Positions 7,387 to 54,733 of a stretch of 63,136 nucleotides of DNA are shown piece after piece. How positions within the stretch are numbered: the stretch's first letter is position 1; each line of letters starts with the position of its first letter. Under the pieces are notes generated by a model, which saw only the letters and a program-made list of their open reading frames with translations, ran no database searches and was not told where the DNA came from. Source of the DNA: Kiloniellales bacterium (GTDB lineage: Bacteria > Pseudomonadota > Alphaproteobacteria > Kiloniellales > J153). The stretch lies in assembly GCA_036397065.1 (NCBI GenBank), contig DASWJP010000023.1, positions 1 to 63,136 of the forward strand, read 5' to 3'. The position numbers were made by a program, and so were the translations under genes.

Positions 7387-7444
7387 TTCCGCGCCCGCGC
7401 GCGGGCGCTTGCGAGGCGCGAAGCATGCTGATACCAAGGGATTC

Positions 7445-9918: not shown

Positions 9919-10011
9919 GCCGTCGTCCGCGCCGAGACTGCAGCAGAGGAAATCTGCGCGGCGGACAACCGATGCGGTGAGTCCGGATCGCTGGCCGGAG
10001 GATCGCCGGTC

Positions 10012-40540: not shown

Positions 40541-40589
40541 GAAAGATCGCCCCCTTGCGCCACACCCGGCGCCACCCTAGCTTTGTCCG

Positions 40590-41477
40590 ATGACCGGACA
40601 CCCCCCCGCGCCCCGCACGCCCGCGGCCGCCACTTCCACCACGCTGGCCGCCAAGCCGTTGATCGGCCTGCCGGCCTGCATCCGGACCATCGAGCACATG
40701 CCGTTCCACACGGTCGGCGACAAGTACCTGCGCGCCGCCGCCGTGGCCGCCCATGGCATCCCCATGATCATTCCGTCCTTCGGCGATTTGCTCGACCCGG
40801 CGGATCTGGTCTCGCGCCTGGACGGCCTGCTCTTGACCGGCAGCCCGTCGAACGTGCACCCGGCCCACTATGGTGCCCCGGCCCATCCCGAGGCGGAACC
40901 CCATGATCCGGACCGGGATGCGACCACCCTGCCGTTGATCCATGCGGCGCTGGCCGACGGGTTGCCCCTGCTGGCGATTTGCCGCGGCATGCAGGAATTG
41001 AATGTCGCCCTGGGCGGCACCTTGCATGCCCGGGTGCACGAGCAAACCGGGCGCATCGATCACCGCCGGCCAAGCCACGAGGATATGGACGTGCAGTACG
41101 CACCGCGCCACGAGGTTCGCTTGACCACTGGCGGCGCCATGGCCCGAATCGCCGGTCCCGTTGCGCAATCGGGGGCGCTGATGGTCAATTCTCTGCATTG
41201 GCAAGCCATCGACCGGGTCGCCGATGATCTGGTGGTCGAAGCGGTGGCCCCGGACGGCACCATCGAGGCCGTTGCGGTGCGCAGCGCCCGGGCCTTTGCC
41301 CTGGGCGTGCAATGGCATCCGGAATACCGGGTGCTCGACGATCCTTTCTCCGTCCGCCTGTTCGCCGACTTTGGCGCCGCAGCGCGGGCCCGTGCCGCCA
41401 ACCGCGGTATGCCTGTCGCAACCGGGCCCGGAACGGGTGTTGCGGCCGGTGCCGGATGGGTCGGCATTGCAACCTGA
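40590..41477 (+). CDS. class I glutamine amidotransferase-like, gamma-glutamyl-gamma-aminobutyrate hydrolase (PuuD/peptidase C26) family
   Basis: It has the nucleophile elbow LAICRGMQELNVALGGTL and a C-terminal ..GVQWHPE motif. Confidence 0.85.
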   Translation: MTGHPPAPRTPAAATSTTLAAKPLIGLPACIRTIEHMPFHTVGDKYLRAAAVAAHGIPMIIPSFGDLLDPADLVSRLDGLLLTGSPSNVHPAHYGAPAHPEAEPHDPDRDATTLPLIHAALADGLPLLAICRGMQELNVALGGTLHARVHEQTGRIDHRRPSHEDMDVQYAPRHEVRLTTGGAMARIAGPVAQSGALMVNSLHWQAIDRVADDLVVEAVAPDGTIEAVAVRSARAFALGVQWHPEYRVLDDPFSVRLFADFGAAARARAANRGMPVATGPGTGVAAGAGWVGIAT

Positions 41478-41584
41478 AAAATCGACACTAAATCTATGAA
41501 CATGAGCTGGCGCCGCAAAGGCGACCGGCCAATACGCGGAAGGGCAACGTCCCCCTGCCATCCTTCCGCGGCTCTACGGAGCAT

Positions 41585-41617
41585 GGAACGCCCGGATCCC
41601 CCCCGACCGGGCGTTCC
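41585..41617. terminator. hairpin between convergent genes (likely end of the minus-strand ABC/CNB/MT operon and/or the puuD-like gene)
   Basis: GGAACGCCCGG-(11-nt C-rich loop)-CCGGGCGTTCC forms a perfect 11-bp stem. There is a weak T-rich tail on the plus strand. Confidence 0.5.
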
Positions 41618-41635
41618 TCGTTCGCGGATTGGTTT

Positions 41636-42124
41636 TCAGCGCCGCCGATAGAGAAAATAGCGGCCCGGTGAAACACCTGGGGGCAGGTTCAATGCCATGG
41701 CATCGAGGCCGGGCAGCGCAAGATCCGAGACCAGCACTCCGCCCGGCACCAACAGGCCGGGCAGATGCTGGGCAAGAAAATCCGCCAGCCGCGCATTCAG
41801 CGCCCGGTCGCCACTGCCGATATCGCTATGGATCAGCGGCACGCGGGCGCGCAGCCGCACCGCCACCGCCGGCAGGGTGTCCCGGATATCGCCGAGGATC
41901 AGATCGTCCCCAGCCGGGCCGATCATGGGATCGTGGGGCGCGAATTGTTCGAAGACGATGATTTGGCGGCCGGGGAAAAGTTCCCGCACATGGTCGTAGG
42001 TCCGCCCATTGCCCAAGCCCACCTCGAGAATGGGGCCGCTCCGGTGGCCCATCAGCTCGGCGGCATGGGCCAGGCACGCGTGTTGCGCGCGCAACCGGCG
42101 GATCAGGCTGTCGAGGCGGCTCAC
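41636..42124 (-). CDS. small class I SAM-dependent methyltransferase-like protein (paralogue B, 162 aa)
   Basis: Motif I-like ILEVGLGNGRTYDH, an acidic end of strand 2 (IIVFEQ), LILGDIRDTLP and LIHSDIGSGDR resemble cation-dependent O-MT / Methyltransf_24-type folds. The GTG start overlaps the upstream stop (GTGA). Confidence 0.6.
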   Translation of the reverse strand: MSRLDSLIRRLRAQHACLAHAAELMGHRSGPILEVGLGNGRTYDHVRELFPGRQIIVFEQFAPHDPMIGPAGDDLILGDIRDTLPAVAVRLRARVPLIHSDIGSGDRALNARLADFLAQHLPGLLVPGGVLVSDLALPGLDAMALNLPPGVSPGRYFLYRRR

Positions 42125-42633
42125 CCGGGACCGGTGGGTCCGGCGCGCCGATACAGGAAATAGGTGCCCGGCATCACCGGCGCCGGGGCCGGGGCCGGCA
42201 CCGGCTGCGCCCTGGCAAAGGCCACATCCCGGTCCGACGCGACCAGGCCGCCGGGCCGCAGCAGGTCCGGCAGAAAACCGGCGATGAAACGGGCCAGCCG
42301 GGCATCCCGCTGCCTATCCGCCGAACCCACATCGGCGTGCACCAGGGCCACCGTCCCGGCGAAGCGCGCCGCCGCCTGGGGCAGGGTCTCGTGAAAATCA
42401 CCGAGCAACAGGTGCGCCGCATCGGGAATACAGTCGGGATGGGCGGAGGCCTCCCGGTCGAAAACGAATATCTCCCGGCCCGGCAAGATCTCGCGCAGAT
42501 GGTCGTAGGTGCGGCCGTTGCCGAGTCCGAGCTCCAGGATCGGCCCCGGCAGATCGCGCACCAGATCAGCCAACGCATTCAGGCACGCCCGTTGCGTCTC
42601 CAGACGCCGGATATTGATATCCAACCGACTCAC
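42121..42633 (-). CDS. small class I SAM-dependent methyltransferase-like protein (paralogue A, 170 aa)
   Basis: It is roughly half identical by eye to paralogue B. Both start MSRLD..IRRL..Q.ACL and share ILELGLGNGRTYDH, LLLGDFHETLP, LVHADVGSADR and the C-terminal YFLYRR. Confidence 0.6.
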   Translation of the reverse strand: MSRLDINIRRLETQRACLNALADLVRDLPGPILELGLGNGRTYDHLREILPGREIFVFDREASAHPDCIPDAAHLLLGDFHETLPQAAARFAGTVALVHADVGSADRQRDARLARFIAGFLPDLLRPGGLVASDRDVAFARAQPVPAPAPAPVMPGTYFLYRRAGPTGPG

Positions 42634-42664
42634 TGTTCCCGTGCTCCCGTCCCAGTGACTTCCG

Positions 42665-43117
42665 TCAGCCGCGCGCCGCGGTGCGCTCCTTGGTCAGTTG
42701 CGCCGTGGTTTGTTCCAGGCGATGGGCCAATACACGCATGACCTCGACTCCCATCTCGGGAAAATCCGTGACCATGCGGAAAAACAGATCCTTGGTGATC
42801 CGCAAGGTCGTCAGCTCGCTGGTGGCGGTCACGGTCGCGGTCCGCGGCACTTCGCAGAGAATGGCGATTTCGCCGACGATGTCGTTCTGGGCCAGCTTGG
42901 CGACCACCGTGGGCTTGTCGGTGGTGACGATCACATCCGCGGTGCCGCTGGCGATGATATACGCCGAGTCGGCGGAATCGCCCTGATCGAACAGCGACTG
43001 TCCCGGCTTGAAGGTCAGGCGTTCGCTGGCAAAGCACATGAGCTTGAGCTTTGCCGGATCGATGTTGGCGAAAAGCGGGATTTTCCGCAGAATTTCAACT
43101 TCCTGTTCAATACTCAC
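42665..43117 (-). CDS. stand-alone cyclic nucleotide-binding (CNB/cNMP) domain protein, no output domain
   Basis: The 150-aa protein starts at GTG with GGAGG 5 nt upstream. It begins LRKIPLFANID and has a phosphate-binding-cassette-like GEIAILCEVPRTATVTA. No HTH or other domain follows. Confidence 0.85.
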   Translation of the reverse strand: MSIEQEVEILRKIPLFANIDPAKLKLMCFASERLTFKPGQSLFDQGDSADSAYIIASGTADVIVTTDKPTVVAKLAQNDIVGEIAILCEVPRTATVTATSELTTLRITKDLFFRMVTDFPEMGVEVMRVLAHRLEQTTAQLTKERTAARG

Positions 43118-43138
43118 CTATGCCTCCGATCGCCCCGA

Positions 43139-45850
43139 TTATTCCGCTGCCAAAATACCACTGAGTGCCGAGCCCGGTTTGCACAATTCGGCGAAGCTGC
43201 CCTGTTCCAACAAACGCCCGTCGCGCATGACCATCACCCGGTCGAAGCGTTCGCCGGCCCGCGGCCGCTGCAGGGTCCAGACCACGCCGCGGCCCTGGCG
43301 GTGGTCGAGAACCTTGCCGAGCAGCCGCGTCTGCGTGGCCTCGTCCATGGCGGCCAGGGCGTCGTTGACGATCAGCATATCCGGTTGCTTCAACAGGGCC
43401 CGGGCCAAGCCGATTTTCTGCCGCTGGTTGCCGCTGAGGCGATTGCCGCCGATGCCGACGCCATAATCGAGCCCGGCCTCGATGACGATCGCACGCAGAC
43501 CCAGATCGTCGAGAACCGCGGTCATGGCCCGGCCGACGATATCCTCCGCCTTGGCCTGGCCATAGGCAAGGCGGCCGAACAGGATGTTGTCCTGCAAAGT
43601 CGCGGCGGCGTTGTAGGCGTCCGGCCGGTAGATGGCCACCGCCTCGGGATCGCTCTCGGCCAGGCGCTCGGCGAACAGACGGCGGGCCTCGACCGCCCGC
43701 GCCTCGACCGCATCGTCGATCAGGCCCAGACGGTGGCGGGCCTCGACATAGGCGAAGGGCAGGCGGCGTAGCGCCAGGCTTTCGGCGGCCGCCAGGGCCT
43801 GCTCGCCCTGGCGGTCCACCTTGCTGAGCAGGTTGCGGTATTCCGGCAGCCCATCGGCATCGATAAAGCTGAACTGTTCGAAGAACGGGTGGCCGGGCGG
43901 CAGGCCGGCGAAGATTTCCACCATGGTGCGGGCGATGCTCAGGCCCATGCGCAGCATATCGTCCATCATGCCGGAATCGGTCAGAACCCGTATCATCAAC
44001 GGATTTTCCGCCAACATTTCTGTAGCGAACCCGGCCTTGCGCGGGGTTCCGAACAAAAGATTCTCGGCCAGTGAGGCATTGCGGTTGTAGGCCTCGGGAT
44101 CGAAGCGAACGACCAGGGTTTGCCCGTCCACCGCCGCCAACCGGCCGGGCAGTGCCGCCCGCGCCTTGAGAATCGCACCGGTGATATCCGGGTGGACCCG
44201 GGGGTCGACGGTTCCGACCAATCCGAAGCGATAGACCTCGTCCTCCATCTCCACCAGGGACAAAACCTCGATCAGCCGCTGGGTCAACGCCGCGGGACTG
44301 GATGCGCCGGCGGCCTCGTAGTCGACCCAATCGGCGGCAATATCGAGGCTCGGATTGCCGGTGCGCACGGCTTCGGCGATCCAGCGCGTCCTGTCGGCAC
44401 CGTCATGTCCGGCGGCCTCCCGCAGAGGTCGATGCTTGAGGCCATAAAGCAGGTTTTCGCGCACCGACAGCGGAAACAGATAGGTCTCCGGCCCCACATA
44501 GGACAGGCGCCGGCCGGTGACCGCCTGCGGCAGGGTGCCCAGATCGCGCTTGCCGATCTCGATGCGCCCAGCGCTGGGCAGCTCGAGACCGCAGAGCATC
44601 AGCGCCAATCGTTCCTTGCCGCTGCCGTCGGTGCCGACGATGGCCGTATGCTCGGCCACGCCGATCTTGAAGCTGATCGAATCGAGCAGCCTGTTGTTGT
44701 TCTCATCGACCAGGCCCACCGCCTGGGCCACGATCTCGCCGGTCAGGGGCGGGCCGACGTCGGCCTCCGGATCCTGCTGTTCCGGCGCCAGGATTTGCGG
44801 CGGCTGGAACTGCTCGATCACCTGTTCATATTTGATCTGCACGTCATTGCGCTGCTGGTCCCAATCGATCAGTTCCTTGATCGGGCTCGGCAAATCCTTG
44901 TAGGCGGCGATCACGGCAACCAGGGCGCCGATATCGAGCTGCCCGTAGATGGCCAGCAAACCGCCGGCGGCGTAAAAGATGAACGGCGTGAGTTGCGCCA
45001 GGAAATTGTTCAGGAACTTGACGAAGAACTTGCGGCGAAAGATCTCGTAGCGGATGTCGAAGATCCGGCCCAGCCGCGCCGCCATATCGGCCCGCTCCAG
45101 ATTCGAGGCATCGTGCGCGTGCACCTCGGTGGCGCCGTCGATGATCTCGCCCACCCGGCCGGCCAGTAGCCGCGCGGTGATCTGCCGCTCCCGCCCGAGG
45201 CGCAGGATCGGCCGGCGCAACCGCGGGATAAAGAAGGCTTGCGCCAGCACGATCCCCGCCGCCACCAGGCCGAGCCACAGGCTTTGCAGCAGGATGAACG
45301 CCATGGCGGTGATCGCCTGGCCGCCCAAAAAGGCCGGTGCGATGAAGGCATCGCCGATGAAGCCGCCCAGCGGCTCCACCTCGTCCTTGATCATGGTGGC
45401 CATCTCGGCCTGCTTGACCTTGCGCACCTGAGGGATGGGGAAGCGCAGGATTCGATCGGTCAGCTCATAGCGCAGCCGGCGCAGCATGCGCTCGCCCAAG
45501 CGTCCCTTGTTGGTGTTGATGATGAATTTGAAGCCGCCATTGATCACAACCATGAACAGGAAGGCGAAGCTCAACGCCATCAAGTACTGGGGCTGGGTCA
45601 GCGCGAAGCCGTCGAACAGCCGCACCGGTGCCAGGTTCAGCCAATCGGCGAAGGGCAGATCGATGACCAGGAACGATTGCGTGGATCCGGGGCCGGCGAA
45701 GCCGACCCCCTGGATGCCGCGGTTGACGATGCCCTTGGGCAGATCGAGGGCGAGGAAATAGAACGGCAGCGACACCAACACCATGACCAGGATGTTGATC
45801 TGCTCGCCCTTGGAATGGCGCCAGATGTATTTGAAAAGGTTCGGTTCCAT
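43139..45850 (-). CDS. ABC exporter, fused TMD-NBD half-transporter with atypical expanded/degenerate NBD (903 aa)
   Basis: The N-terminal 6-TM type I exporter domain spans about aa 1-345. The NBD motifs are Walker A-like GTDGSGKE (aa 406-413), signature LSGNQ (aa 805-809) and Walker B MLIVND (aa 825-830). See the findings for the anomalies. Confidence 0.85.
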   Translation of the reverse strand: MEPNLFKYIWRHSKGEQINILVMVLVSLPFYFLALDLPKGIVNRGIQGVGFAGPGSTQSFLVIDLPFADWLNLAPVRLFDGFALTQPQYLMALSFAFLFMVVINGGFKFIINTNKGRLGERMLRRLRYELTDRILRFPIPQVRKVKQAEMATMIKDEVEPLGGFIGDAFIAPAFLGGQAITAMAFILLQSLWLGLVAAGIVLAQAFFIPRLRRPILRLGRERQITARLLAGRVGEIIDGATEVHAHDASNLERADMAARLGRIFDIRYEIFRRKFFVKFLNNFLAQLTPFIFYAAGGLLAIYGQLDIGALVAVIAAYKDLPSPIKELIDWDQQRNDVQIKYEQVIEQFQPPQILAPEQQDPEADVGPPLTGEIVAQAVGLVDENNNRLLDSISFKIGVAEHTAIVGTDGSGKERLALMLCGLELPSAGRIEIGKRDLGTLPQAVTGRRLSYVGPETYLFPLSVRENLLYGLKHRPLREAAGHDGADRTRWIAEAVRTGNPSLDIAADWVDYEAAGASSPAALTQRLIEVLSLVEMEDEVYRFGLVGTVDPRVHPDITGAILKARAALPGRLAAVDGQTLVVRFDPEAYNRNASLAENLLFGTPRKAGFATEMLAENPLMIRVLTDSGMMDDMLRMGLSIARTMVEIFAGLPPGHPFFEQFSFIDADGLPEYRNLLSKVDRQGEQALAAAESLALRRLPFAYVEARHRLGLIDDAVEARAVEARRLFAERLAESDPEAVAIYRPDAYNAAATLQDNILFGRLAYGQAKAEDIVGRAMTAVLDDLGLRAIVIEAGLDYGVGIGGNRLSGNQRQKIGLARALLKQPDMLIVNDALAAMDEATQTRLLGKVLDHRQGRGVVWTLQRPRAGERFDRVMVMRDGRLLEQGSFAELCKPGSALSGILAAE

Positions 45851-46118
45851 CGCGGCGCACAGTTGTGATGACGCGCCTGCGGCGCCCGGCGAACCCAGGC
45901 ATCGCAGGCAGCCGATGACGTTAGCCCATGGCGGTATACCCGTAAACTGACCTTAACCGACGGGGCACCGGGGGGCGTCCGCCAGACGAACGCAAGCGGA
46001 ACATCCATAGGATCCCGTCACAAAACCGTCCTCAGGGCGCCTCTTCACGCGCGCCGGGCGGTATGCCATAGTCCGCCAAACAGGACATCGCGTCCTGAAC
46101 CAGGGGGAGGATCGCGGC

Positions 46119-47360
46119 ATGGGGCACGGCCGCAAAGATAATCGCGTTCTCATTTACAGTCATGACAGTTTCGGCCTCGGCCATTTGCGCCGTTGCCGCG
46201 AGATCGCACACAGTTTGGTGGGTGCGGAGAACAACCTGTCGGTGTTGATTCTGTCCGGCTCGCCGATCATCGGCAGCTTCGATTTCCGCTCGCGCGTGGA
46301 TTTCGTGCGTATCCCGGGAGTCATCAAGCTGCGCAACGGCGAATACACGTCGCTGGGTCTGCATATCGATATCGAACAGACGTTGGCCATCCGCGCGTCG
46401 ATCGTCGAGCATACGGCGAACATTTTCGATCCGGATCTGTTCATCGTCGACAAGGAACCGTTGGGCCTGCACGGCGAGGTCCGCCGGACCCTGGCCATGA
46501 TGCAGGCGCGGGGGACGCCGTGCGTGCTTGGCCTGCGCGATGTGATGGACGATCCGGCCATTCTCAAGCCGGAATGGAAGCGCAAGAACGTGATTCCGGC
46601 CCTGAGCGCCTATTACGACGCGATCTGGGTCTATGGCCTGCCGCAGATCTGCGATCCCTTGGCCGATCTGGGCGTGCCGGACTGGATCCGCCAGAGGATG
46701 ACCTATACCGGCTATCTCAACCGGCATGTGCCGGAAACCGGGCCGACGTTTGTTCCGGAAAAGATCGCCGATCCCTATCTGCTGGTGACCGTCGGCGGCG
46801 GCGGCGATGGCGAGGCGATCATCGACTGGGTGCTGTCGGCCTACGAAACCGATCCGGATCTGCCGGACCCGGCCTTGCTCGTTCTTGGCCCCTTCATGGG
46901 TCCGCAGTATCAGGCGGAGTTCCTGCAGCGTGCCGCGCGCCTGGACAAGGTGGAGGCGATCACCTTCGATGCCCATATCGAAAGCCTTATGGCCAGCGCC
47001 AAGGGGATCGTCTGCATGGGCGGCTACAACACATTTTGCGAGGTACTCTCATTCGACAAGCGGGCCCTGGTGATTCCGCGCACCGTGCCCCGGCTTGAGC
47101 AGTACATTCGCGCCGTTCGCGCCCAGGAGCTGGGCCTGGTGCAGGTTCTGGTCGATGAAGGGGTGCGCGATCCGCGCCAGATGGCCCAGGCTCTGCGCCG
47201 TCTGCCGACCCAGCCGCTGCCCTCGAGCGTCAGCGTGCCGGGCCTGCTCGATGGCCGCGAGAACGTGGTCAAGCTGGCCAGCCAATTGCTGCACGACCGC
47301 CGGCACTCGTTCGTCTCGCGCGCGAATGTGTCCATGGCCGCCGGCCGCGGCGCGAAATAG
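46119..47360 (+). CDS. GT-B fold glycosyltransferase (MurG/GT28-like, COG4671-type), paralogue 1
   Basis: GGGGGAGG lies upstream of the ATG. It has the N-terminal RVLIYSHDSFGLGHLRRC motif and a C-terminal GGYNT.CE...F.K.ALV.PR nucleotide-sugar-binding region. Confidence 0.78.
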   Translation: MGHGRKDNRVLIYSHDSFGLGHLRRCREIAHSLVGAENNLSVLILSGSPIIGSFDFRSRVDFVRIPGVIKLRNGEYTSLGLHIDIEQTLAIRASIVEHTANIFDPDLFIVDKEPLGLHGEVRRTLAMMQARGTPCVLGLRDVMDDPAILKPEWKRKNVIPALSAYYDAIWVYGLPQICDPLADLGVPDWIRQRMTYTGYLNRHVPETGPTFVPEKIADPYLLVTVGGGGDGEAIIDWVLSAYETDPDLPDPALLVLGPFMGPQYQAEFLQRAARLDKVEAITFDAHIESLMASAKGIVCMGGYNTFCEVLSFDKRALVIPRTVPRLEQYIRAVRAQELGLVQVLVDEGVRDPRQMAQALRRLPTQPLPSSVSVPGLLDGRENVVKLASQLLHDRRHSFVSRANVSMAAGRGAK

Positions 47361-47431
47361 GAGAGAGAGACCGGATCCCCAGTGGGCCGGTGCCTTGACG
47401 GACCGGCGCCGGGCTCCCTAACCTCACTGCC

Positions 47432-48691
47432 ATGCCGGATCGTGCCGCACCCGGGCTTGTCGCTGTTGTGCTGAAGGGCTATCCGCGCCTGTCGGAAACC
47501 TTCATCGCCCAGGAGATCCATTCCCTGCAACAGCGCGGCTTGCGCCTCGCCCTCTATTCCCTGCGCCAGCCCACGGAAGCCGCGGTGCACCCGATCCACC
47601 GGGAGATCACCGCGCCGGTCACCTATTTGCCGGAGTATCTGCACGCGCAGCCGGGGCGCGTCTGGGCCGCCTGGCGGCGGGCACGGCGATTGCCGGGATA
47701 CGCCGCCGCGTGGCGCATCTTCCGGGGCGATCTGGCGCGCGAGCGCAGCCGCAACCGCATCCGCCGGTTCGGCCAGGCGTGCGTTCTGGCCGCCGAACTG
47801 CCGACCCAGGTGACGCGCCTCTATGCCCATTTTCTCCATACGCCGGCTTCGGTCGCCCGCTATGCCGCGGTCATGACCGGTTTGCCGTGGTGCGCCTCGG
47901 CCCATGCCAAGGATATCTGGACCACGCCGGAGTGGGAGATACGGGAAAAGCTGGCCGCCGCCGATTGGGTCACCACCTGCAGCGCCGCGGCCCGCGATCA
48001 TCTGGCCGCCCTGGCGCCCGGCCCGGAGAAGGTCACGCTCTCCTACCACGGCCTCGATTTCGCGCGCCTGCCGCCGCCACCCACCCGCCCACGCCGCGAT
48101 GGCGCGGACGCCGCCGATCCGGTGATCGTGCTGTCCGTCGGCCGCGCCGTCGAAAAGAAAGGGTACGACGATGTGCTCGATGCCCTGGTGCAATTGCCCA
48201 CGGATCTGCACTGGCGGCTGGTGCACATCGGCGGCGGCGAACGCACCAAGGCGCTGGCCGCCCGTGCCGCTGCCCTGGGATTGGCGCCGCGCATCACCTG
48301 GTTGGGCGCCCAGCCGCAGGAGCGGGTGCTGAGCGAATACGGTCGCGCCGATCTGTTCGTCCTGGCCAGCCGGATCGCCCGGGATGGCGATCGCGACGGC
48401 CTGCCGAACGTGTTGATGGAGGCGCAGAGCCAGGGCTTGCCCTGCATCGCCACCCGCGTCTCGGCCATTCCCGAACTGATCGAGCATCAGGCGACCGGCC
48501 TGCTGGTGCCGCCGGGCGATCCGGCCGCCTTGGCCGCGGCGCTGGCGCAGCTGATTCGCGACCCGCGGGCCCGGTCCGATTTGGGCGCCGCTGGGTGCCG
48601 GCGTGTGCGCGCCGACTTTTCCCTGACCGCCGGCATCGACACCATCGCCGCACGTTTCGGCTTGCCGCCCGCCGCCGCGGCGGCGCAGTAG
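47432..48691 (+). CDS. GT4 family glycosyltransferase (WcaL-like)
   Basis: The GT-B retaining family signature is EGLPNVLMEAQSQGLPCIATRVSAIPELIE (EX7E). The N-terminal YPRLSETFI motif is typical of WcaL-like enzymes. Confidence 0.86.
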   Translation: MPDRAAPGLVAVVLKGYPRLSETFIAQEIHSLQQRGLRLALYSLRQPTEAAVHPIHREITAPVTYLPEYLHAQPGRVWAAWRRARRLPGYAAAWRIFRGDLARERSRNRIRRFGQACVLAAELPTQVTRLYAHFLHTPASVARYAAVMTGLPWCASAHAKDIWTTPEWEIREKLAAADWVTTCSAAARDHLAALAPGPEKVTLSYHGLDFARLPPPPTRPRRDGADAADPVIVLSVGRAVEKKGYDDVLDALVQLPTDLHWRLVHIGGGERTKALAARAAALGLAPRITWLGAQPQERVLSEYGRADLFVLASRIARDGDRDGLPNVLMEAQSQGLPCIATRVSAIPELIEHQATGLLVPPGDPAALAAALAQLIRDPRARSDLGAAGCRRVRADFSLTAGIDTIAARFGLPPAAAAAQ

Positions 48692-48723
48692 CCGGGCGGC
48701 GCGGCCGCCGGCCCAGACCCCGC

Positions 48724-49857
48724 ATGCGGATCGCTTTTTACGCCCCCCTGAAGCCGCCCTCCCATCCGGTCCCCTCGGGCGACCGGCGCATGTCGCGGCT
48801 GCTGCTCTTGGCCCTGCGCCGCGCCGGCCACCGGGTGGAGGTGGCCAGCCGTCTGCGCAGCCGCGACGGCACCGGCGATTCGGCCCGGCAAGCACGCGTC
48901 GCCCGCGCCGGGGCGGCCACCGCCCAGCGCCTGATCCAGCGCTACCGGAAACGGCCGGCGGCGGAGCGGCCGCGCGTTTGGATGACCTATCACCTCTACT
49001 ACAAGGCACCGGATTGGCTGGGCCCGGCGGTCAGCGCGGCCCTGGGCATTCCCTACGTGGCGGTGGAGGCTTCGGTGGCCGGCAAACGGGCGGAAGGATC
49101 GTGGGCCGATGGCCATCGCGCGACATTGGAAGCCTTGGCGCACGCGGCCGCCGTGATCGCCGTCAATCCGGCGGATGTGGCCGCCTTGCCCGATCCCGGC
49201 CGGGTGCATCTGCTGCCGCCGTTTCTCGACCCGGCACCCTTTCGCGCCGCCGTCCAGGCGCGCGAATCCAATCGCGCCGCTTTTGCAAAACAACTGGGCA
49301 TCGCCGCCGCGCCGCCGTGGCTGCTGGCGGTGGCCATGATGCGCCCCGGCGACAAGCTGACCTCCTACCGGCAATTGGCCACGGCCCTGGCCGGTCTCGC
49401 GGATCGCCCTTGGCGGTTGCTGATCGCCGGCGACGGCGCGGCCCGGCCGGAGGTGGAGCGGGCTTTCGCCTGGGCGCCGCCGGAGCGGGTGCAATTTCTC
49501 GGCGCCTTGCCGGGTGCGGCCCTGCCCGCTCTGTATGCCGCCTGCGACGTGCTGGTCTGGCCGGCGCACAACGAGGCCTATGGCATGGCTTTGCTGGAGG
49601 CGCAGGCGGCCGGGCTGCCGGTGCTCGCCGGAGCCAGCGGCGGGGTCGCCGCCATCGTGCGCGACGGGCGCACGGGCGTGCTCACGCCGCCGGGCGACAC
49701 GAATGCCTTTGCCGCCGCCCTGGACGGGCTATTGGCGGACCCGGCGCGGCGCCGGACCATGGCCGAAGCGGCCGAGGCAACGGTTGCCGCCGCGCATGGC
49801 ATCGACCGGGCGGCCGCCCGATTGGATGAGATTCTCAATCGGGTGACGGCGCCATGA
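48724..49857 (+). CDS. GT4 family glycosyltransferase
   Basis: The real start is the ATG at 48724 (MRIAFYAPLKPP). It has the EX7E region EAYGMALLEAQAAGLPVLAGASGGVAAIV. The upstream part of the listed 715-aa ORF is an artefact. Confidence 0.85.
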   Translation: MRIAFYAPLKPPSHPVPSGDRRMSRLLLLALRRAGHRVEVASRLRSRDGTGDSARQARVARAGAATAQRLIQRYRKRPAAERPRVWMTYHLYYKAPDWLGPAVSAALGIPYVAVEASVAGKRAEGSWADGHRATLEALAHAAAVIAVNPADVAALPDPGRVHLLPPFLDPAPFRAAVQARESNRAAFAKQLGIAAAPPWLLAVAMMRPGDKLTSYRQLATALAGLADRPWRLLIAGDGAARPEVERAFAWAPPERVQFLGALPGAALPALYAACDVLVWPAHNEAYGMALLEAQAAGLPVLAGASGGVAAIVRDGRTGVLTPPGDTNAFAAALDGLLADPARRRTMAEAAEATVAAAHGIDRAAARLDEILNRVTAP

Positions 49858-50480
49858 CTCCGCTGGTGCTCATCCGCCACGGCCCGACCGAATGGAATGC
49901 CGAGGGCCGCATCCAGGGCCATACGGACGTGCCGCTGTCGCCCGCCGGGGTGCAAACGGTGCGCGGATGGTCCTTGCCGGCCGAGATCGTGGCCGCCGCC
50001 GAAGCCTGGGACTGGCGGGTCAGCCCCCTGGCCCGCGCCCGGCAAACCGCCGAACTGCTGGTGCCGTCGGCGGCCCGCGCCGCGCTTCAGTGCGAGCCGG
50101 CGCTGATCGAGAGCCATTGGGGCGCGTGGGAGGGGCAGCACCTGGCGGATGTCCGCCAGGCCGGCGGTGCCGAGGTGGCCGAGGCGGAGGCCCGCGGCCT
50201 CGACTTCGCGGCCCCCGGCGGCGAATCGCCGCGCCAGGCGCAGGCGCGGCTGGCACCGTTCCTGGCCGCGGTCGCGGCGGGCAGGCGGCCCACGGTCGCC
50301 ATCACCCACAAGGGCGTGATCCGCGCCATCTTCGCCTGGGCCGCCGCCTGGGACATGACCGGCAGGGCGCCGGTTCGCCTGCACTATGACTGCGCCCACG
50401 GTTTTCTGCTGCAAACCGATGGGGTCCCCATCATCGACCGCCTGAACATCCCGCTGCACCGGCCGGAGAATGCGCCATGA
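49854..50480 (+). CDS. histidine phosphatase (phosphoglycerate mutase-like) family protein
   Basis: It has the catalytic RHG motif (LIRHGPTEWN) and a downstream ITHKGVIR (His) motif. The ATG overlaps the upstream stop (ATGA). Confidence 0.85.
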   Translation: MTPLVLIRHGPTEWNAEGRIQGHTDVPLSPAGVQTVRGWSLPAEIVAAAEAWDWRVSPLARARQTAELLVPSAARAALQCEPALIESHWGAWEGQHLADVRQAGGAEVAEAEARGLDFAAPGGESPRQAQARLAPFLAAVAAGRRPTVAITHKGVIRAIFAWAAAWDMTGRAPVRLHYDCAHGFLLQTDGVPIIDRLNIPLHRPENAP

Positions 50481-51631
50481 CCGACGTGCTGTTCTATGTG
50501 CAGCACCTGCTCGGCATCGGCCATCTGCGCCGGGCGGCGTTGATCGCCAAGGCCATGGATCGGGCCGGCCTCGGCGTGGTCCTGGTCAGCGGCGGACAGC
50601 CGGTGCCGGGGCTGGACGTGGGCGGGGCGGCGCTCGTGCAACTGCCGCCGCTGCGGGCCCGCGACGATCGCTTTTCCGAGCTGGTCGACGGCGCTGGCAA
50701 ACCGGTAGGTGCGGCATGGAAAGCGGCGCGGGCCGCCCGCTTGCTTGAAATTTACGACCAGTCCCGGCCCAAGGTGCTGCTCATCGAGATGTTTCCCTTT
50801 GGCCGGCGCCTCATGCGCTTCGAGCTGCTTCCGCTATTGGAGGCGGCGCAAGCATCCCGGCCTCGGCCGCAAATTCTCTGTTCCCTGCGCGATGTGCTCG
50901 GTGCGGCGCGCTCGGCCGAGAAGGTTGAGTGGATGCTGACTACGTTCCATCGATTCTTCGATCAACTCCTGGTGCACGGCGATCCGGCGTTCCTGCCGTT
51001 GCAACACAGCTTTCCCCGGGCCGGCGAGATTGCCGCCAAGACGCGCTATACCGGCTACGTGGTCGAAGACGTGCACAAAGGCGAAGCGAAGGCGGGCTCG
51101 TCTGGCGAGGTCGTCATCTCCGCCGGCGGCGGTGCCGTGGCCGGGCCGTTGATCGCGGCGGCCCTGGCGGCACGGCCCCTGAGCCCGTTGGCATCGGTGC
51201 CCTGGCGCATCCTGGTGGGCAACAACCTGCCCGAGGACGCATTCCAGGCCGCCCGCGGCGCGGCGCCGGCCGGGGTCATGGTCGAACGGGCGCGCGCGGA
51301 TTTCACCGCCCTCTTGGCACGGGCGCGTTTGTCCATCAGCCAGGGCGGCTATAACACGATCCTTGAGGTTCTCGCCGCCAGGATACCCGCGGTCGTCGTG
51401 CCCTTTGCCGGCAGCGGCGAGACCGAGCAGAATGTGCGCGCCACGGCCCTGGGCGACCGCGGGGCGATCACCGTGCTGACGGAGGCGCAGCTGTCGCCGG
51501 CGGCCCTGGCCGCGGCGATCCAGCGGGCCCTGTCGGCCGCACCGCAACCGACGGATTTGCGCCTCGATCTGGGCGGCATGGAGAAAACAGCGCAGATCGT
51601 GGGCCAAGCTGCTGCTATAGTAACCCCATGA
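50477..51631 (+). CDS. GT-B fold glycosyltransferase (MurG/GT28-like, COG4671-type), paralogue 2
   Basis: The N-terminal VLFYVQHLLGIGHLRRA parallels the motif in 46119-47360. The C-terminal region is SQGGYNTILEVLAARIPAVVVPF. It has ATGA overlaps at both ends. Confidence 0.78.
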   Translation: MTDVLFYVQHLLGIGHLRRAALIAKAMDRAGLGVVLVSGGQPVPGLDVGGAALVQLPPLRARDDRFSELVDGAGKPVGAAWKAARAARLLEIYDQSRPKVLLIEMFPFGRRLMRFELLPLLEAAQASRPRPQILCSLRDVLGAARSAEKVEWMLTTFHRFFDQLLVHGDPAFLPLQHSFPRAGEIAAKTRYTGYVVEDVHKGEAKAGSSGEVVISAGGGAVAGPLIAAALAARPLSPLASVPWRILVGNNLPEDAFQAARGAAPAGVMVERARADFTALLARARLSISQGGYNTILEVLAARIPAVVVPFAGSGETEQNVRATALGDRGAITVLTEAQLSPAALAAAIQRALSAAPQPTDLRLDLGGMEKTAQIVGQAAAIVTP

Positions 51632-52461
51632 CCGATTGGCCGGATCTGACCCAGGAACTGGATGCGTGGGCCGCCGACGGCACCGCCGTGACCCTGTGGT
51701 GGCGCGACGACGATGCGGTGGAGCCGACGCCGGCGCTCGAACACCTGCTCGAGCTGACGGTGCGCCATGGGGTGCCCTTGGCCTTGGCGGTCATTCCCGG
51801 ACGCGCGTCCCTGGCCTTGGCGGCCCGCATCGCCGCCACCAGCGACACGATCGTGCCGGTGCAACATGGCTTTGCCCACCGCAACCACGCCCAGCCGCCG
51901 GCCCGCAAGGCCGAGCTGGGCGCGGACCGGCCGGCCACCGTGGTATGCGAGGAACTGGCGCGTGGCCAGGCGCGCATGGCGGCCTTGTTCGGCGCCCGGG
52001 CCATGCCCTTTCTGGTGGCGCCATGGAACCGGATCGACGGCGGCGTGATTGCGGCCTTGCCCGGCCTGGGATACCGGGCGCTCTCGACCTATGACGCGCG
52101 GCCCGCCACGCATGCGGCGCCCGGCTTGGCGCAGGTGAATTGCCATCTCGATATCATGCGCTGGACGGCGTCACGGGGATTTGCCGGCGATGCCGTTGCC
52201 CTGAAGCGTTTGCTGCATCATCTGCGCGCACGGCGCAGCGGCGCCGTGGACGCGACCGAGCCCACGGGACTTCTCACCCACCACGCCGCGCACGATGCCG
52301 AAAGCTGGATCTTCCTGGACCGGCTGCTCATGGTCCTGCGCGCCCATCCGGCGGTGCGATTCGTCTCCATCGTGGAGGCGGTGCAGGCCGCGTTGTCCAG
52401 TCAAGAAGAGCGCCCCGCTGTGCAAAATACCGCCCTGAAGTCTGCCGCGGGGGCGGCGTGA
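51628..52461 (+). CDS. polysaccharide deacetylase (CE4/NodB-like) family protein
   Basis: LWWRDDD (the TFDD-like Asp pair) and HGFAHRNH (a His pair) are plausible CE4 metal/catalytic motifs. The assignment is by eye. Confidence 0.65.
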   Translation: MTDWPDLTQELDAWAADGTAVTLWWRDDDAVEPTPALEHLLELTVRHGVPLALAVIPGRASLALAARIAATSDTIVPVQHGFAHRNHAQPPARKAELGADRPATVVCEELARGQARMAALFGARAMPFLVAPWNRIDGGVIAALPGLGYRALSTYDARPATHAAPGLAQVNCHLDIMRWTASRGFAGDAVALKRLLHHLRARRSGAVDATEPTGLLTHHAAHDAESWIFLDRLLMVLRAHPAVRFVSIVEAVQAALSSQEERPAVQNTALKSAAGAA

Positions 52462-52961
52462 CGGTTCATCGCTATCCGCCCCAGGCGTTGTTGGGAGATT
52501 ACGCACGCAGCGCCGCGGGACTAAGTGTCGGTCTTGGGGTGCTGGTCTCGGTGCCGACCTCGCCGGTCATCGTGGCGATCTTCGGCGGATTGACGGCCCT
52601 GTTTCTTGTTTTCGCCCTGCGCACGGTGCAACGCCATGTGGTGCAGGTGGCGGTGACCGAGGACGGCATCGCCGCCGCCGGCCTGGTGACCCGCGCCCTC
52701 CGCTGGGAGGCGCTGGAGCGCCTGACCCTGCGCTATTACGGAACCCGGCGCCAGCGCAAGGAAGGCGGCAGCGGCTTCATGCAATTGAGCCTGCGCGGCG
52801 GCGGGATCTCCCTGCGCCTGGAATCCTCGATCGACGGCTTCGACCAGATCATCCGCCAGGCCGCGCAGGCGGCCCGGCGCAAGGGTCTGGCGCTCGACCC
52901 GGCCTCGGCGGGCAACCTGCTCGGGCTGGGGATCGATGTGGATGCGTCGGCCGAAGGCTGA
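52458..52961 (+). CDS. hypothetical membrane protein (two TM helices plus a small soluble, possibly bacterial PH-like, domain)
   Basis: The GTG overlaps the upstream stop (GTGA). It has the hydrophobic hairpin GLSVGLGVLVSVPTSPVIVAIFGGLTALFLVFAL, followed by ...RALRWEALERLTLRYYG....GFMQLSLRGGG.SLRLES. Confidence 0.5.
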   Translation: MTVHRYPPQALLGDYARSAAGLSVGLGVLVSVPTSPVIVAIFGGLTALFLVFALRTVQRHVVQVAVTEDGIAAAGLVTRALRWEALERLTLRYYGTRRQRKEGGSGFMQLSLRGGGISLRLESSIDGFDQIIRQAAQAARRKGLALDPASAGNLLGLGIDVDASAEG

Positions 52962-53108
52962 CCGATCGCCACCCGTGGCTGCATCCGGGGCCGCGCCCGG
53001 CTTCTAACCTGAGGCCGATTCGTCTCTTTTTGTCCGTCCGTGTCCGTTAACAACGCTTTAAACCTTTTCGGGCAGGCTTGGATCGGCATGCTGTAACAAG
53101 GCCGAGAT

Positions 53109-53330
53109 ATGACCAAAGACCGGCTATTAACGCCGCCGCAAGTGGCCACGCGCCTGCAGGTCAACGAGCGAACCGTGACCCAATGGCTGCGCAAGGGACA
53201 TTTGCGCGGATTCAAGATCGGCAAGGAGTGGCGCGTCTCCGCGGTCGACCTGGAGTCGTTCCTGGACGCCAGCGCCAATGTGCCGCCCAGCCCGGACCGG
53301 CCGACCCACGAGAGCTTCGAGGACGACTGA
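53109..53330 (+). CDS. excisionase-family (HTH_17/MerR-like) DNA-binding protein, 73 aa
   Basis: LLTPPQVATRLQVNERTVTQWLRKGHLRGFKIGKEWRVSAVDLESFL is the classic excisionase-type HTH pattern. Confidence 0.75.
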   Translation: MTKDRLLTPPQVATRLQVNERTVTQWLRKGHLRGFKIGKEWRVSAVDLESFLDASANVPPSPDRPTHESFEDD

Positions 53331-53368: not shown

Positions 53369-54733
53369 CTACGGCACCAGCACCACCACATCGACGGGAT
53401 GACCGACGCCGGCCACCGCCGAGGCCGCGATCCGGCGCGGTGGGCCGGCGGGGGCGGGGGCGTAGCCTTGCGCCAGGGCCCGCGCGTAGGTTTCGGCATC
53501 GCAGATCGCATGGGTTCCCAACGGCTTGTTGTGCTGCTCCAACTTGGCGGAGCGATTCACCGCATCGCCGATGACCGTATATTCCAGGCGCGTCTCGTCG
53601 CCGACGGCCCCGAAAAGGACCCGGCCGGTGGCCACCGCCGCATTCACCTCCGGGCAATCTTCGCCGCGTCCGCGCAATTCGTCGCGCCAGTCTTGGGCGT
53701 TGCGGATGGCCTCATCGACGGCGCGCAGCGCATCGGCCGCATAGGTCGTCGACGGCAGGGCCGCGCCGAAGGTCGCCATGATCCCGTCGCCGAGAAATTT
53801 GTCGATGCTGCCGCCGTGCGCCTGAACGACCGGCACGATGTGATGCTGGTAGTCGGCCAGCAATTTCATCACCCGGTCCGGGCTGGCGGTCTCGGCCAAC
53901 CGGGTAAAGCCGCGCATGTCGAAGTTGACCACGGCGGCCTCGCGAATCTCGCCGCTGCCGGCGGCGATCGCTTGATCGGAGCCGCGGATCTTTCGCGCGA
54001 TCTCGGGGGCGAAGAAGCGCGACAGCTCGCGCGCGGCGGCGGCCTCGGCGACCGAGCGGACCAGAAGCGCGCGGCCGCGAATCAAGGCCGCGCCGAGAAT
54101 CAGGGAGACCACGAGGATGGAGACGATCTTGTCGAACTCGGCGCCCAGCAGAATGCTGTTCGAGGTCATGTATTCCACATAGTTGCGGGTGATCATGTTG
54201 TCGTTCGGATCGACCGAGATCACGTAGAACACCATGGCCAGCCAGCCCACCGCCGCCGCCACGCCGGCGGCGAGCACGAAGCGCGCCTCGAAGCGCAGCG
54301 CCCGCAAAGCGATGAAGATGAAGACATAGAGCAAGGTCGGCGCCTTCAGATAGAACGACGCCGGCTGCATGTATTGAATGTGGAAGCTCCAGATGAGGCC
54401 GAACAGCAGGGCCATGTCGATGACAATGGAGACCAGCAGGAACCAGCCGGGCAGACTGATGCGATAGGCCAGCATCAGACGAATCAGGGTGAACACCATA
54501 TAGGCGCCGATGGCCCAGGGCACCGGCCGGAACGCTTGCTCCACCGGGAATGTTTTCGGCGAGATCGCATAGAGGGCGGCGAAGGTCACGACGACGGCCA
54601 ATTGCACCCAGCCGATCAGGCGCTCGGTCGCATCGCCCTGTTCCTGGATCGTATGGCGCACCCGCTCCGGCAGCCCAGTCTCCGGGCCACGGCGTAACCT
54701 GCCGATCTTCATGCGCCGCAACACGGTTGCCAT
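53369..54733 (-). CDS. membrane-bound class III adenylate/guanylate cyclase (6 TM + cyclase homology domain)
   Basis: Six N-terminal hydrophobic helices are followed by a CHD with the metal Asp contexts VVNFDMRGFT and KFLGDGIMATFG, and the downstream YTVIGDAVNRSAKLE. Confidence 0.9.
   Translation of the reverse strand: MATVLRRMKIGRLRRGPETGLPERVRHTIQEQGDATERLIGWVQLAVVVTFAALYAISPKTFPVEQAFRPVPWAIGAYMVFTLIRLMLAYRISLPGWFLLVSIVIDMALLFGLIWSFHIQYMQPASFYLKAPTLLYVFIFIALRALRFEARFVLAAGVAAAVGWLAMVFYVISVDPNDNMITRNYVEYMTSNSILLGAEFDKIVSILVVSLILGAALIRGRALLVRSVAEAAAARELSRFFAPEIARKIRGSDQAIAAGSGEIREAAVVNFDMRGFTRLAETASPDRVMKLLADYQHHIVPVVQAHGGSIDKFLGDGIMATFGAALPSTTYAADALRAVDEAIRNAQDWRDELRGRGEDCPEVNAAVATGRVLFGAVGDETRLEYTVIGDAVNRSAKLEQHNKPLGTHAICDAETYARALAQGYAPAPAGPPRRIAASAVAGVGHPVDVVVLVP

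Follow-up and report, generated by a model that had tools for sequence, protein, structure and literature searches.

Analysis of a 63,136 nt contig from a Kiloniellales bacterium (GenBank assembly GCA_036397065.1, contig DASWJP010000023.1; hereafter the window) revealed two divergently oriented gene runs that we propose to encode the two halves of a cyclic nucleotide monophosphate (cNMP)-gated glycoconjugate assembly and translocation system conserved in Alphaproteobacteria, a reading to which we give about an even chance of being correct. The minus-strand run encodes an ABC-type membrane protein (ABC protein), a stand-alone cyclic-nucleotide-binding protein (CNB protein) and two Methyltransf_17 methyltransferases (MT-a and MT-b), and the plus-strand run encodes two MurG-like GT-B glycosyltransferases (GTB1 and GTB2), two family 4 glycosyltransferases (GT4a and GT4b), a histidine phosphatase, a carbohydrate esterase family 4 (CE4)-like deacetylase and a small membrane protein. 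All 11 genes, which had been listed in a first-pass annotation of the same DNA, were found again by open reading frame (ORF) calling combined with Pfam and NCBIfam scans of the window proteins. The proposal draws on the co-conservation of these genes, on fusion of the CNB domain to an ABC homologue, on intact cNMP-binding motifs, on the CE4 fold of the deacetylase-like protein and on the non-canonical nucleotide-binding domain (NBD) of the ABC protein. That the locus is real and coherent and that the CNB and ABC proteins are linked is well founded, while a role as exporter, a cyclic nucleotide as the ligand and the chemistry of the product are what we infer from this evidence.

The window proteins were mapped onto 81 loci, namely 80 species-level loci and one Rhizobium leguminosarum plasmid locus, drawn from Kiloniellaceae, Dongia, Reyranella, Hyphomicrobiales and rhizobial plasmids, and flanks were surveyed for up to 10 kb on each side (less at contig ends). 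The ABC gene is present in all 81 loci, followed by CNB (79), GTB1 (76), GT4a (70), a methyltransferase (63), GT4b (61), GTB2 and the histidine phosphatase (56 each), the transmembrane protein (52) and CE4 (42). The divergent layout is constant throughout, and 35 of the 51 loci that lie wholly within their contig contain every gene family. Because order and orientation repeat in 80 independent species-level loci, the arrangement goes far beyond what would be expected by chance. Co-conservation, which the first-pass annotation had proposed as a check on its candidate locus, is thereby confirmed: the two divergent runs form one co-conserved unit, of which the CE4 and S-adenosylmethionine (SAM)-dependent methyltransferase tailoring genes are part. 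The core of the system consists of ABC, CNB, GTB1 and GT4a, and the GT4b-phosphatase pair, GTB2, CE4, the transmembrane protein and the methyltransferase are accessories. Rhizobial plasmid versions keep ABC, CNB and three transferases and lack the GT4b/phosphatase pair altogether.

The ABC protein has thousands of full-length relatives at 50-90% identity. In its split form, i.e. without a fused CNB domain, the family comprises at least 6,800 relatives at E <= 1e-20, a number that may include generic ABC proteins, with matches in more than 550 species-level genomes. The nearest named ABC relative is found in a Kiloniellaceae metagenome-assembled genome (MAG) and is 81% identical, and the window locus is syntenic with housekeeping flanks. 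An earlier suggestion that the locus might be seen in the context of cGMP-controlled encystment in the Rhodospirillum centenum/Azospirillum clade holds insofar as Azospirillum carries a version of the system; the nearest relatives of the window locus, however, are Kiloniellaceae MAGs and not members of that clade, and for the window the encystment context would be an analogy only.

The CNB protein (42665-43117, minus strand, 150 aa) consists of a cNMP-binding domain alone, which passes the PF00027 cut-off (E 7.5e-19) and carries a phosphate-binding cassette, VGEIAILCEVPRTATV, of the canonical PKA/PKG type. Within this cassette, G82, R92, T93 and A94 are invariant and E83 is nearly invariant across 19 orthologues, and in a profile search the protein matches PKG, PKA-R and Epac in their cNMP-binding domains, with E values between 1e-24 and 1e-38. 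Pfam and NCBIfam scans detected no helix-turn-helix (HTH), DNA-binding or other output domain. A CRP/FNR-type transcription factor was considered and rejected based on the length of the protein, 150 aa, and on its NCBIfam CRP match, which spans model positions 16-137 of 214 and falls far below cut-off. A Pycsar-like anti-phage system was also rejected, with PADLOC matching the generic CNB part only and no effector domain being present; the other nine locus proteins scanned with PADLOC contained no Pycsar or cNMP-defence component, the ABC protein giving one weak match (mad3, E 1.3e-9).

The association of the CNB protein with the ABC protein is close. The two genes adjoin in 79 of the 81 loci, the two exceptions being contig ends, and the domains are fused in a diverged version of the system: Azospirillum lipoferum 4B carries on plasmid p4 a 12-gene operon of the order MT17 - ABC::CNB - Opp importer (four genes) - GTB1 - GT4a - GT4b - HisPhos - GTB2 - CE4. 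The enzymes of this operon share 37-58% identity with their window counterparts, and its 1048-aa ABC homologue, 32% identical to the window ABC protein, ends in a C-terminal PF00027 domain. Among the best 120 relatives of this ABC::CNB protein, about 105 contain a fused PF00027 domain, so that at least 100 fused proteins exist besides that of Azospirillum. Because the diverged split and fused versions are each linked to the same enzymes, these data are strong evidence that the CNB domain acts on the ABC protein and that the pair serves the enzyme set. In line with the earlier interpretation, in which the CNB protein acts on the ABC protein or on the enzymes, we regard it as a partner dedicated to the ABC protein. 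By extension, cAMP or cGMP may control the ABC membrane protein through the CNB protein. As separate observations, a 1186-aa fused ABC::CNB member (P0359) also contains a GGDEF domain (PF00990), which would tie the module to cyclic di-GMP (c-di-GMP) synthesis, and Marinobacterium rhizophilum (L089:9001-12259) encodes an unfused 867-aa ABC relative without glycan neighbours; the 180-aa ORF that follows it showed no recognisable CNB when checked.

The nearest known case of an ABC exporter carrying a CNB-type domain is that of HetC from Nostoc PCC 7120, a type IV exporter that needs its CNB-fold domain for function (PMC10986499). Similarly, TIGR03896 'bacteriocin-type transport-associated' CNB proteins, to which the window CNB protein has a sub-threshold match, contain a CNB fold and are encoded beside an ABC exporter, as here. 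HetC possesses essential canonical ATPase residues, a C39 peptidase, an N-terminal CNB domain and a presumed peptide cargo, whereas in the system described here CNB is separate or fused to the C-terminus, a peptidase is lacking, the NBD departs from the canonical pattern and the neighbouring genes encode glycan enzymes. The CNB domain of HetC bound ppGpp, and caution is therefore needed in assuming that the ligand of the CNB protein is cAMP or cGMP.

The ABC protein (43139-45850, minus strand, 903 aa) matches Pfam ABC_membrane (PF00664) and has a split ABC_tran match. Its AlphaFold2 (AF2) model (mean predicted local distance difference test score, pLDDT, 79) contains six long helices forming a type IV exporter transmembrane domain (TMD), and the best Foldseek matches are Pgp, TmrAB, PCAT1, MsbA and Atm1 (E ~1e-14). 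Its best NCBIfam match is MsbA, below cut-off, with PglK among the matches as well. A motif census of 197 non-identical family members revealed that the ATPase motifs depart from the canonical pattern across the family. The Walker A Ser/Thr is canonical in none of the 197, being replaced by Glu (125) or Asp (72; the window protein reads GTDGSGKE), and the Walker A Lys is retained in 159, with mostly Met (22) and also Gly, Ala or Arg in the remainder. This Lys is thus lost in 19% of the family, and it is also lost in the proteins of Sinorhizobium meliloti, Azospirillum and Ruegeria. Only 2 of 197 sequences keep the Walker B Asp, Asn being found in 191, and the following residue is E or D in 179. 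The H-loop His is canonical in 7 (Gln in 128) and the Q-loop Gln in 96, the window protein having Pro at this position. In the signature motif L805 and Q809 are retained, and both Gly positions are mostly occupied by A, S, V or T.

The NBD also contains an insert of about 260 aa between the Q-loop and the signature motif that consists of two extra Q-loop/'xLxxN[IL]LFG' ('NLLFG') units. The Q-loop unit is thus triplicated, repeats B and C aligning with a score of 73 compared with 22 +/- 4.7 for shuffled sequences. The best conserved part of the protein is the TMD, with a mean column conservation of 0.77 vs 0.64-0.69 across the parts of the NBD. Among sequence motifs, the three that are conserved best (residues 157-178, ~317-340 and 746-766) coincide with segments whose AF2 pLDDT is below 50, a combination that, judging from the model, would fit interface regions. 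Walker A has gained an acidic residue and Walker B has lost one, which could represent a compensatory charge swap, in which case the site could still bind Mg-nucleotide. Because this paired change could compensate, we refer to the NBD site as non-canonical and not as dead. The census and the NBD repeats bear out the earlier description of the protein as highly atypical. As for its label as an exporter, the type IV exporter fold is confirmed, but Walker A, Walker B and the H-loop depart from the canonical residues and export had been assumed.

Of all the enzymes, GTB1 (46119-47360, plus strand, 413 aa) is conserved best; it occurs in 76 of the 81 loci, with identities of 54-88%. It is a GT-B protein with a MurG/GT28-like C-terminal domain (PF04101, E 1.2e-7), and GTB2 (50477-51631, plus strand, 384 aa; PF04101, E 2e-12) is a distant paralogue with 26% identity that is duplicated in Kiloniella and Pelagibius loci. 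PF04101 covers the C-terminal half only and scores 32.3 and 47.9 bits for GTB1 and GTB2, respectively, vs a cut-off of 22, and full-length GT-B models miss their cut-offs (TIGR01133 murG, 32.5 vs 250; TIGR00661, 32 vs 196). Single-sequence and profile searches of the PDB with GTB1 returned no solved relative, only noise. GT28 C-terminal-domain enzymes, such as MurG and PssE-type proteins, use lipid-linked acceptors. GT4a (47432-48691, plus strand, 419 aa; PF00534, E 5e-35) and GT4b (48724-49857, plus strand, 377 aa; PF13692/PF00534) are family 4 glycosyltransferases, both far above the Pfam gathering scores for Glycos_transf_1/Glyco_trans_1_4. The solved structures nearest to GT4a are PimB', BshA, sucrose-phosphate synthase and MshA, and the best solved relatives of GT4b are sucrose-phosphate synthase (6KIH) and MshA (3C4Q), both of which act on phosphorylated acceptors. 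The gene for the branch 1 histidine phosphatase (49854-50480, plus strand, 208 aa; PF00300 His_Phos_1, E 1.9e-36, 126 bits) overlaps GT4b by 4 nt and is translationally coupled to it. The protein has its RHG motif at residues 8-10 and its second His in ITHKG, and among its relatives in the PDB are alpha-ribazole phosphatase and glucosyl-3-phosphoglycerate phosphatase.

The 277-aa protein encoded at 51628-52461 (plus strand) was matched by no Pfam or NCBIfam model, nor by any PDB sequence in single-sequence or profile searches, and among its orthologues only sub-threshold traces of models were found (PF01522, Polysacc_deac_1, in 1 of 19, E 0.027; DUF2334 in 5 of 19, E 0.009). An orthologue alignment showed the motifs WWRDDDA, QHGxxHxNH, PPWNR and THH to be invariant or nearly so; within QHGxxHxNH, H80, G81 and H84 are invariant and Q79, N86 and H87 highly conserved. 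Judged by eye from the alignment, these motifs may correspond to CE4 motifs 1, 2, 3 and 5. An AF2 model built from 26 sequences (pLDDT 90.1) matched 3RXZ, SpPgdA, CE4 xylan esterases, PdaC, ArnD and chitin deacetylases in Foldseek at E 1e-7 to 1e-4, the best E against CE4 deacetylases being ~1e-7 with TM-scores of 0.5-0.65. Based on this model the protein is a CE4/NodB-fold, deacetylase-like protein, so that the CE4-like label given in the first-pass annotation is correct at the level of the fold, with no sequence model matching it. The inclusion of a CE4 protein in the set implies an acetylated (N- or O-) sugar in the product.

MT-a (41636-42124, 162 aa) and MT-b (42121-42633, 170 aa), both on the minus strand, belong to Methyltransf_17 (PF12692; E 2.6e-45 and 6.1e-51, respectively) and are 51.5% identical to each other. 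MT-b is the conserved copy, following CNB in 63 of the 81 loci; MT-a is a lineage-specific second copy, a second Methyltransf_17 gene being found only in the window and in four related loci (L002-L005). The solved structure nearest to MT-b, 3IHT, is a protein of no known function. Methyltransferases of different families occupy comparable positions across lineages. In Azospirillum, the Methyltransf_17 gene lies upstream of the fused ABC::CNB gene, and in S. meliloti CNB is followed by a gene for an FkbM-type methyltransferase, and a class I SAM methyltransferase gene without family assignment lies upstream of ABC, where other lineages have Methyltransf_17. The presence of MT17 and CE4 co-varies, with both in 36 loci, neither in 9 and discordance in 6, these being raw counts that are not corrected for phylogeny. 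The last gene of the plus-strand run (52458-52961) encodes a 167-aa membrane protein with two transmembrane helices and a cytoplasmic domain of about 90 aa; it has no Pfam match and is conserved in 52 of 81 loci.

Directly downstream of the enzyme operon, and outside the coordinates considered in the first-pass annotation, lie a gene for an excisionase/MerR-like HTH_17 DNA-binding protein (53109-53330, plus strand, 73 aa; PF12728, E 4.3e-13) and a gene for a membrane-anchored class III adenylate/guanylate cyclase (53369-54733, minus strand, 454 aa; PF00211, E 1.9e-7) that is convergent with the operon. The claim that the CNB protein is the only regulatory component of the locus consequently does not hold. 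In L002 and L005, the two loci most closely related to that of the window, orthologues of the cyclase adjoin the cluster (84% and 72%, respectively), and the HTH_17 gene, an accessory of these closest relatives, is conserved beside the cluster in the same two loci. The substrate-specifying positions of the cyclase, which we take to be the Lys and Thr in IDKFLGDG ... YTVIGDAVN, would suggest an adenylyl cyclase. Elsewhere, non-orthologous cyclases adjoin the system in L059, R. leguminosarum and S. meliloti, in the latter two at the head of the operon; a GAF-PAS-cyclase gene located immediately upstream of ABC-CNB was seen in one MAG. Counted together, non-orthologous cyclases adjoin the system in four contexts. 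The view that a neighbouring cyclase acts as a local cNMP source has moderate support, since cyclases are numerous in these bacteria and the majority of loci have none within 10 kb.

In 48 of the 81 loci, as well as in Azospirillum and rhizobia, the unit includes an Opp/Yej-type importer, which in many lineages is coupled translationally to the enzyme genes. It is made up of a fused double ATPase, which is intact, two permeases and usually an SBP_bac_5 protein, and in two loci (L082 and L083) an importer gene overlaps the last gene of the enzyme operon by 4 nt. The clade of the window retains ABC and CNB and has no Opp-type importer in the locus. Where it is co-encoded, the importer points either to a cycle of release and recovery or to the uptake of a precursor.

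Taken together, we favour the following model, in which the direction of transport, the identity of the ligand, the product chemistry and the order of the enzymatic steps are our own reconstruction. The ABC-like protein, CNB and Methyltransf_17 would form a membrane translocation and sensing module. The ABC protein, with its type IV (MsbA/PglK/PCAT-like) exporter fold, would use its remodelled NBD partly as a docking platform for CNB, and a cyclic nucleotide bound to CNB would switch the translocator on or off post-translationally. The second half would be a cytoplasmic assembly line of two MurG-like GT-B enzymes, two GT4 enzymes, the phosphatase, the CE4 protein and the small membrane protein that builds a short glycoconjugate. 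Its most likely route would have a GT4 enzyme glycosylate a phosphorylated acceptor and the phosphatase strip the phosphate, after which the remaining transferases would extend the product, an N-acetyl sugar would be deacetylated and the product would be methylated. The end product of this line, whether soluble or anchored in the membrane, would be the cargo of the ABC-like protein. Cyclases recruited beside the locus in several lineages would supply the signal, and the Opp/Yej-type importer found in many lineages would take the product, a fragment or a precursor back in. A short glycoconjugate, partly deacetylated and methylated, seems the most economical reading of the predicted enzyme set, and the 'methylated, partly de-N-acetylated oligosaccharide' named in the first-pass annotation would be a reasonable description of it.

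A number of observations weigh against this model. Canonical catalytic residues of the NBD are missing throughout the 197-member census; ATP-driven export is not assured, because the ATPase motifs are non-canonical family-wide and the Q-loop unit is triplicated, and on these sequence features a conventional ATP-driven pump appears doubtful. Cyclases adjoin a minority of loci only, CNB-fold domains can take other ligands, as illustrated by the binding of ppGpp to the HetC CNB domain in vitro (PMC10986499), and the co-variation of MT17 and CE4 has the phylogenetic limit given above. The ABC genes of Ruegeria and of three loci of uncertain taxonomy (L088-L090; two fused to CNB, one unfused) are found without glycosyltransferase neighbours. 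Because these genes stand without glycan genes, the ABC/CNB module must be more general than its glycan partnership, and the translocator is not intrinsically a glycan exporter. In addition, the locus has no acceptor, sugar-nucleotide or priming gene that would show the chemistry, and transferases of the MurG-like kind would be equally at home in a lipid-linked route for which priming takes place elsewhere in the genome.

The last point leads to an ordinary lipid-linked surface glycan, such as a lipopolysaccharide (LPS) core, an O-antigen-like chain or a side branch of an exopolysaccharide (EPS), which would be primed by a WecA- or PssA-type enzyme elsewhere on undecaprenyl phosphate or a membrane lipid and flipped by a PglK/MsbA-like ABC protein, the cNMP being a mere modulator. 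Lipid-linked acceptors are established for GT28 C-terminal-domain enzymes, priming enzymes are often unlinked to their pathway genes, the matches of the ABC protein include PglK and MsbA, the latter the best though sub-cut-off, and a polysaccharide lyase gene (PF14099) adjoins the S. meliloti copy. We nevertheless consider such a pathway improbable: no conserved priming, polymerase, chain-length, outer-membrane export or ligase family recurs in the flanks of the 81 loci, surveyed for up to 10 kb and less at contig ends, no NCBIfam EPS/LPS equivalog reaches cut-off, the NBD is unlike those of PglK and MsbA, and such pathways do not feature a histidine phosphatase coupled to a transferase or an importer of the Opp type. 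Alternatively, the ABC-like protein may not be a transporter at all but a cNMP-responsive pseudo-ABC scaffold or regulator of the glycosyltransferases or of the Opp/Yej-type permease, with other proteins carrying out transport. The family-wide degeneration of the ATPase motifs, including the loss of the Walker A Lys in several clades, the enlargement of the NBD by the triplicated Q-loop unit and the poor modelling of the most conserved motifs, as expected for interfaces, all agree with this idea, as does the coupling of a genuine importer with an intact double ATPase to the enzyme genes in 48 of the 81 loci, Azospirillum and rhizobia. It is harder to reconcile with a TMD that is the best conserved part of the protein and adopts a complete six-helix type IV exporter fold, with the retention of ABC and CNB in the clade of the window, where the locus has no Opp-type importer, and with an E/D-for-S/T and N-for-D swap that could still bind Mg-nucleotide. 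We therefore hold a scaffold to be unlikely as well.

A variant in which the repurposed ABC fold would be a cNMP-gated, largely ATP-independent translocator appears rather unlikely to us. With its swapped Mg-ligand chemistry and triplicated Q-loop unit, the NBD would have ceased to power transport and would relay the occupancy of a bound or fused CNB domain by cAMP or cGMP to a transmembrane gate that, in this clade, releases a small methylated amino-sugar glycoside, acting as a secreted signal or public good and recovered by the Opp/Yej-type importer. Least probable, in our estimation, is a compatible-solute or storage glycoside, made from a phosphorylated acceptor by a GT4 synthase and the phosphatase in the logic of sucrose, glucosylglycerate or the mycothiol precursor and elaborated by the other enzymes, with ABC/CNB as a release valve and Opp-type re-uptake. 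The relationship of GT4b to sucrose-phosphate synthase and MshA, and of its 4-nt-overlapping phosphatase partner to glucosyl-3-phosphoglycerate phosphatase among others, would suit such a pathway, and exporter-like and importer genes share an operon in many lineages; the GT4 matches, however, cover the generic nucleotide-sugar-binding half, and rhizobial versions dispense with the GT4b/phosphatase pair, yet keep ABC, CNB and three transferases. Furthermore, four transferases, a deacetylase and a methyltransferase exceed the needs of known solute pathways, and known solute importers belong to other ABC families.

The first-pass annotation had also stated that the genes of standard EPS, capsule or O-antigen pathways are absent from the locus and had listed the locus as a candidate undescribed one, and both points agree with our searches. 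No Wzx, Wzy, Wza, Wzc, Kps or Wzm/Wzt family, no priming phosphoglycosyltransferase and no sugar-nucleotide enzyme family was found among the eleven products of the 41.5-53 kb region, all of which were scanned with Pfam and ten with NCBIfam, and conserved families for priming, polymerisation, chain-length control, outer-membrane export or ligation do not recur in the surveyed flanks of the 81 loci. A known EPS, LPS or capsule locus was rejected, as these hallmark genes are missing and no NCBIfam equivalog reaches cut-off for the ten proteins; the missing priming enzyme is compatible with a lipid-linked route primed elsewhere in the genome. Full-text literature searches, with most subscription journals out of reach, returned no description of the cluster, which is no proof of absence. 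With regard to a possible place of the locus among the polysaccharide clusters of the S. meliloti Clr regulon, the Clr targets named in PMC5498481 are exo genes and the nodP2-smb21248 cluster.

Known systems share parts of this logic. The closest functional analogy is provided by c-di-GMP, which gates polysaccharide secretion post-translationally via receptors on membrane machinery (BcsA-PilZ, Alg44, PgaCD and PelD). In our model, too, a second-messenger receptor would sit on membrane machinery; here, the predicted messenger is cAMP or cGMP, its receptor would be the CNB domain and the machinery is an ABC-fold half-transporter instead of a GT2 synthase, and there is no homology. In the Nod-factor pathway (NodC, NodB, NodS, NodIJ), an oligosaccharide, a CE4 de-N-acetylase, a SAM methyltransferase that acts after deacetylation and an ABC exporter of the secreted glyco-signal are combined, a logic echoed here by the co-varying MT17 and CE4 and the ABC protein. 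In contrast to that pathway, the present locus has no GT2 chitin-oligosaccharide synthase and no acyltransferase, and has GT-B and GT4 enzymes, a different methyltransferase family and a type IV half-transporter that is not of the NodIJ type. The MshA/MshA2/MshB, BshA/BshB, SPS/SPP and GpgS/GpgP pathways resemble the system in pairing a GT4 enzyme, whose relatives use phospho-acceptors, with a coupled GpgP-resembling phosphatase and then a deacetylase. MshB and BshB are, however, LmbE-type and not CE4 enzymes, and here there are no thiol-ligase genes or other genes for downstream steps and there are three further transferases and an ABC/CNB module. MsbA and PglK share the type IV exporter fold, MsbA being the best NCBIfam match below cut-off, and differ from the ABC protein in its non-canonical Walker A, Walker B and H-loop, its NBD insert of about 260 aa and its dedicated CNB partner. 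In CFTR (ABCC7), cAMP acts via PKA phosphorylation of the R domain, one ATP site is catalytic and the protein is a gated pathway and not a pump; the ABC fold, the degenerate nucleotide site and the cAMP control, the last being only proposed for the present system, are an analogy only, without an evolutionary link.

To our knowledge, bacterial cAMP and cGMP signalling is understood almost wholly via CRP-type transcription factors. A non-DNA-binding cNMP receptor wired or fused to an ABC-fold protein points to direct post-translational control of transport, which, if true, would parallel the c-di-GMP control of cellulose, alginate and poly-N-acetylglucosamine. A gated glycoside, if confirmed, would represent a previously unrecognised alphaproteobacterial glyco-signal circuit, and the product could be a new envelope component or a secreted glycoside relevant to rhizosphere and marine lifestyles. 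The system is present in the tractable plant-associated bacteria R. leguminosarum, R. etli, S. meliloti and A. lipoferum, where many orphan cyclases lack a known target. An NBD combining a conserved charge swap with internal triplication is in itself unusual.

With regard to gene layout, the junctions described earlier were found at the positions claimed. The MT-a and MT-b genes are joined by a GTGA overlap, and the CNB gene has a GTG start with a GGAGG 6 nt ahead of it and is separated by 21 nt from the ABC stop and by 31 nt from MT-b. The order of the seven plus-strand genes and the four 4-nt ATGA/GTGA overlaps that join the last five of them stand as described, and the start of GT4b was corrected to the ATG at 48724, located 32 nt past the TAG of GT4a. 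The 268-bp control region between the divergent runs (45851-46118) was compared by aligning 10 intergenic regions, and two conserved blocks were found in Kiloniellaceae loci. Block 1, GTTTAC-N~16-GGGCTAAGGT (G or C at the eighth position of the second element), lies ~100 nt upstream of the ABC start (~45915-45950), and block 2, GACTATGGCA, lies ~45 nt upstream of the GTB1 start (window ~46062-46075); judging from position and conservation, the two are possible promoters of the two operons. A promoter scan of the region found no sigma-70 consensus match, and no CRP-type palindrome was visible by eye in the alignment of the 268-bp region. A search for a riboswitch or other RNA element gave no Rfam match at E <= 0.1.

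The inverted repeat at 41585-41617 (no strand assigned), with a perfect 11-bp stem and an 11-nt loop, was found as claimed and is located between the convergent MT-a and Peptidase_C26 (40590-41477, plus strand) genes. RNA folding gave -31.6 kcal/mol with an energy z-score of only -1.95, no U-tract or T-run follows the stem and a terminator scan gave no call; the hairpin is probably a bidirectional terminator-like element. A terminator-like hairpin with a T-run is present at 53011-53026 (plus strand), 50 nt past the last gene of the plus-strand operon. Upstream of the HTH_17 gene, a GTTAAC-containing block at ~53036-53062, TGTCCGTTAACA..TTTAAA, is conserved in the same two relatives that keep the gene, L002 and L005. 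As the HTH_17 gene is the sole conserved small ORF in the gaps, a precursor gene for a ribosomally synthesised and post-translationally modified peptide or a glycopeptide was dismissed. A 710-aa ORF at 39429-41561 (minus strand) was likewise discarded as a GC-rich shadow ORF over two real genes, FA_hydroxylase (39677-40540, minus strand) and the Peptidase_C26 gene.

Upstream of the cyclase and on the same strand, genes for a Methyltransf_24 protein (54815-55699, minus strand) and a metallo-beta-lactamase-fold protein (55696-56577, minus strand) are found. In S. meliloti ml46 (L084, pSymB), the GTB1 and GTB2 homologues (7435-8632 and 9901-11008) are seemingly frameshifted, and most RefSeq pSymB records show no CDS beneath the ABC gene (strain 1021: 841723-844435). 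The S. meliloti locus may be decaying, or these features may be sequencing or annotation artefacts.

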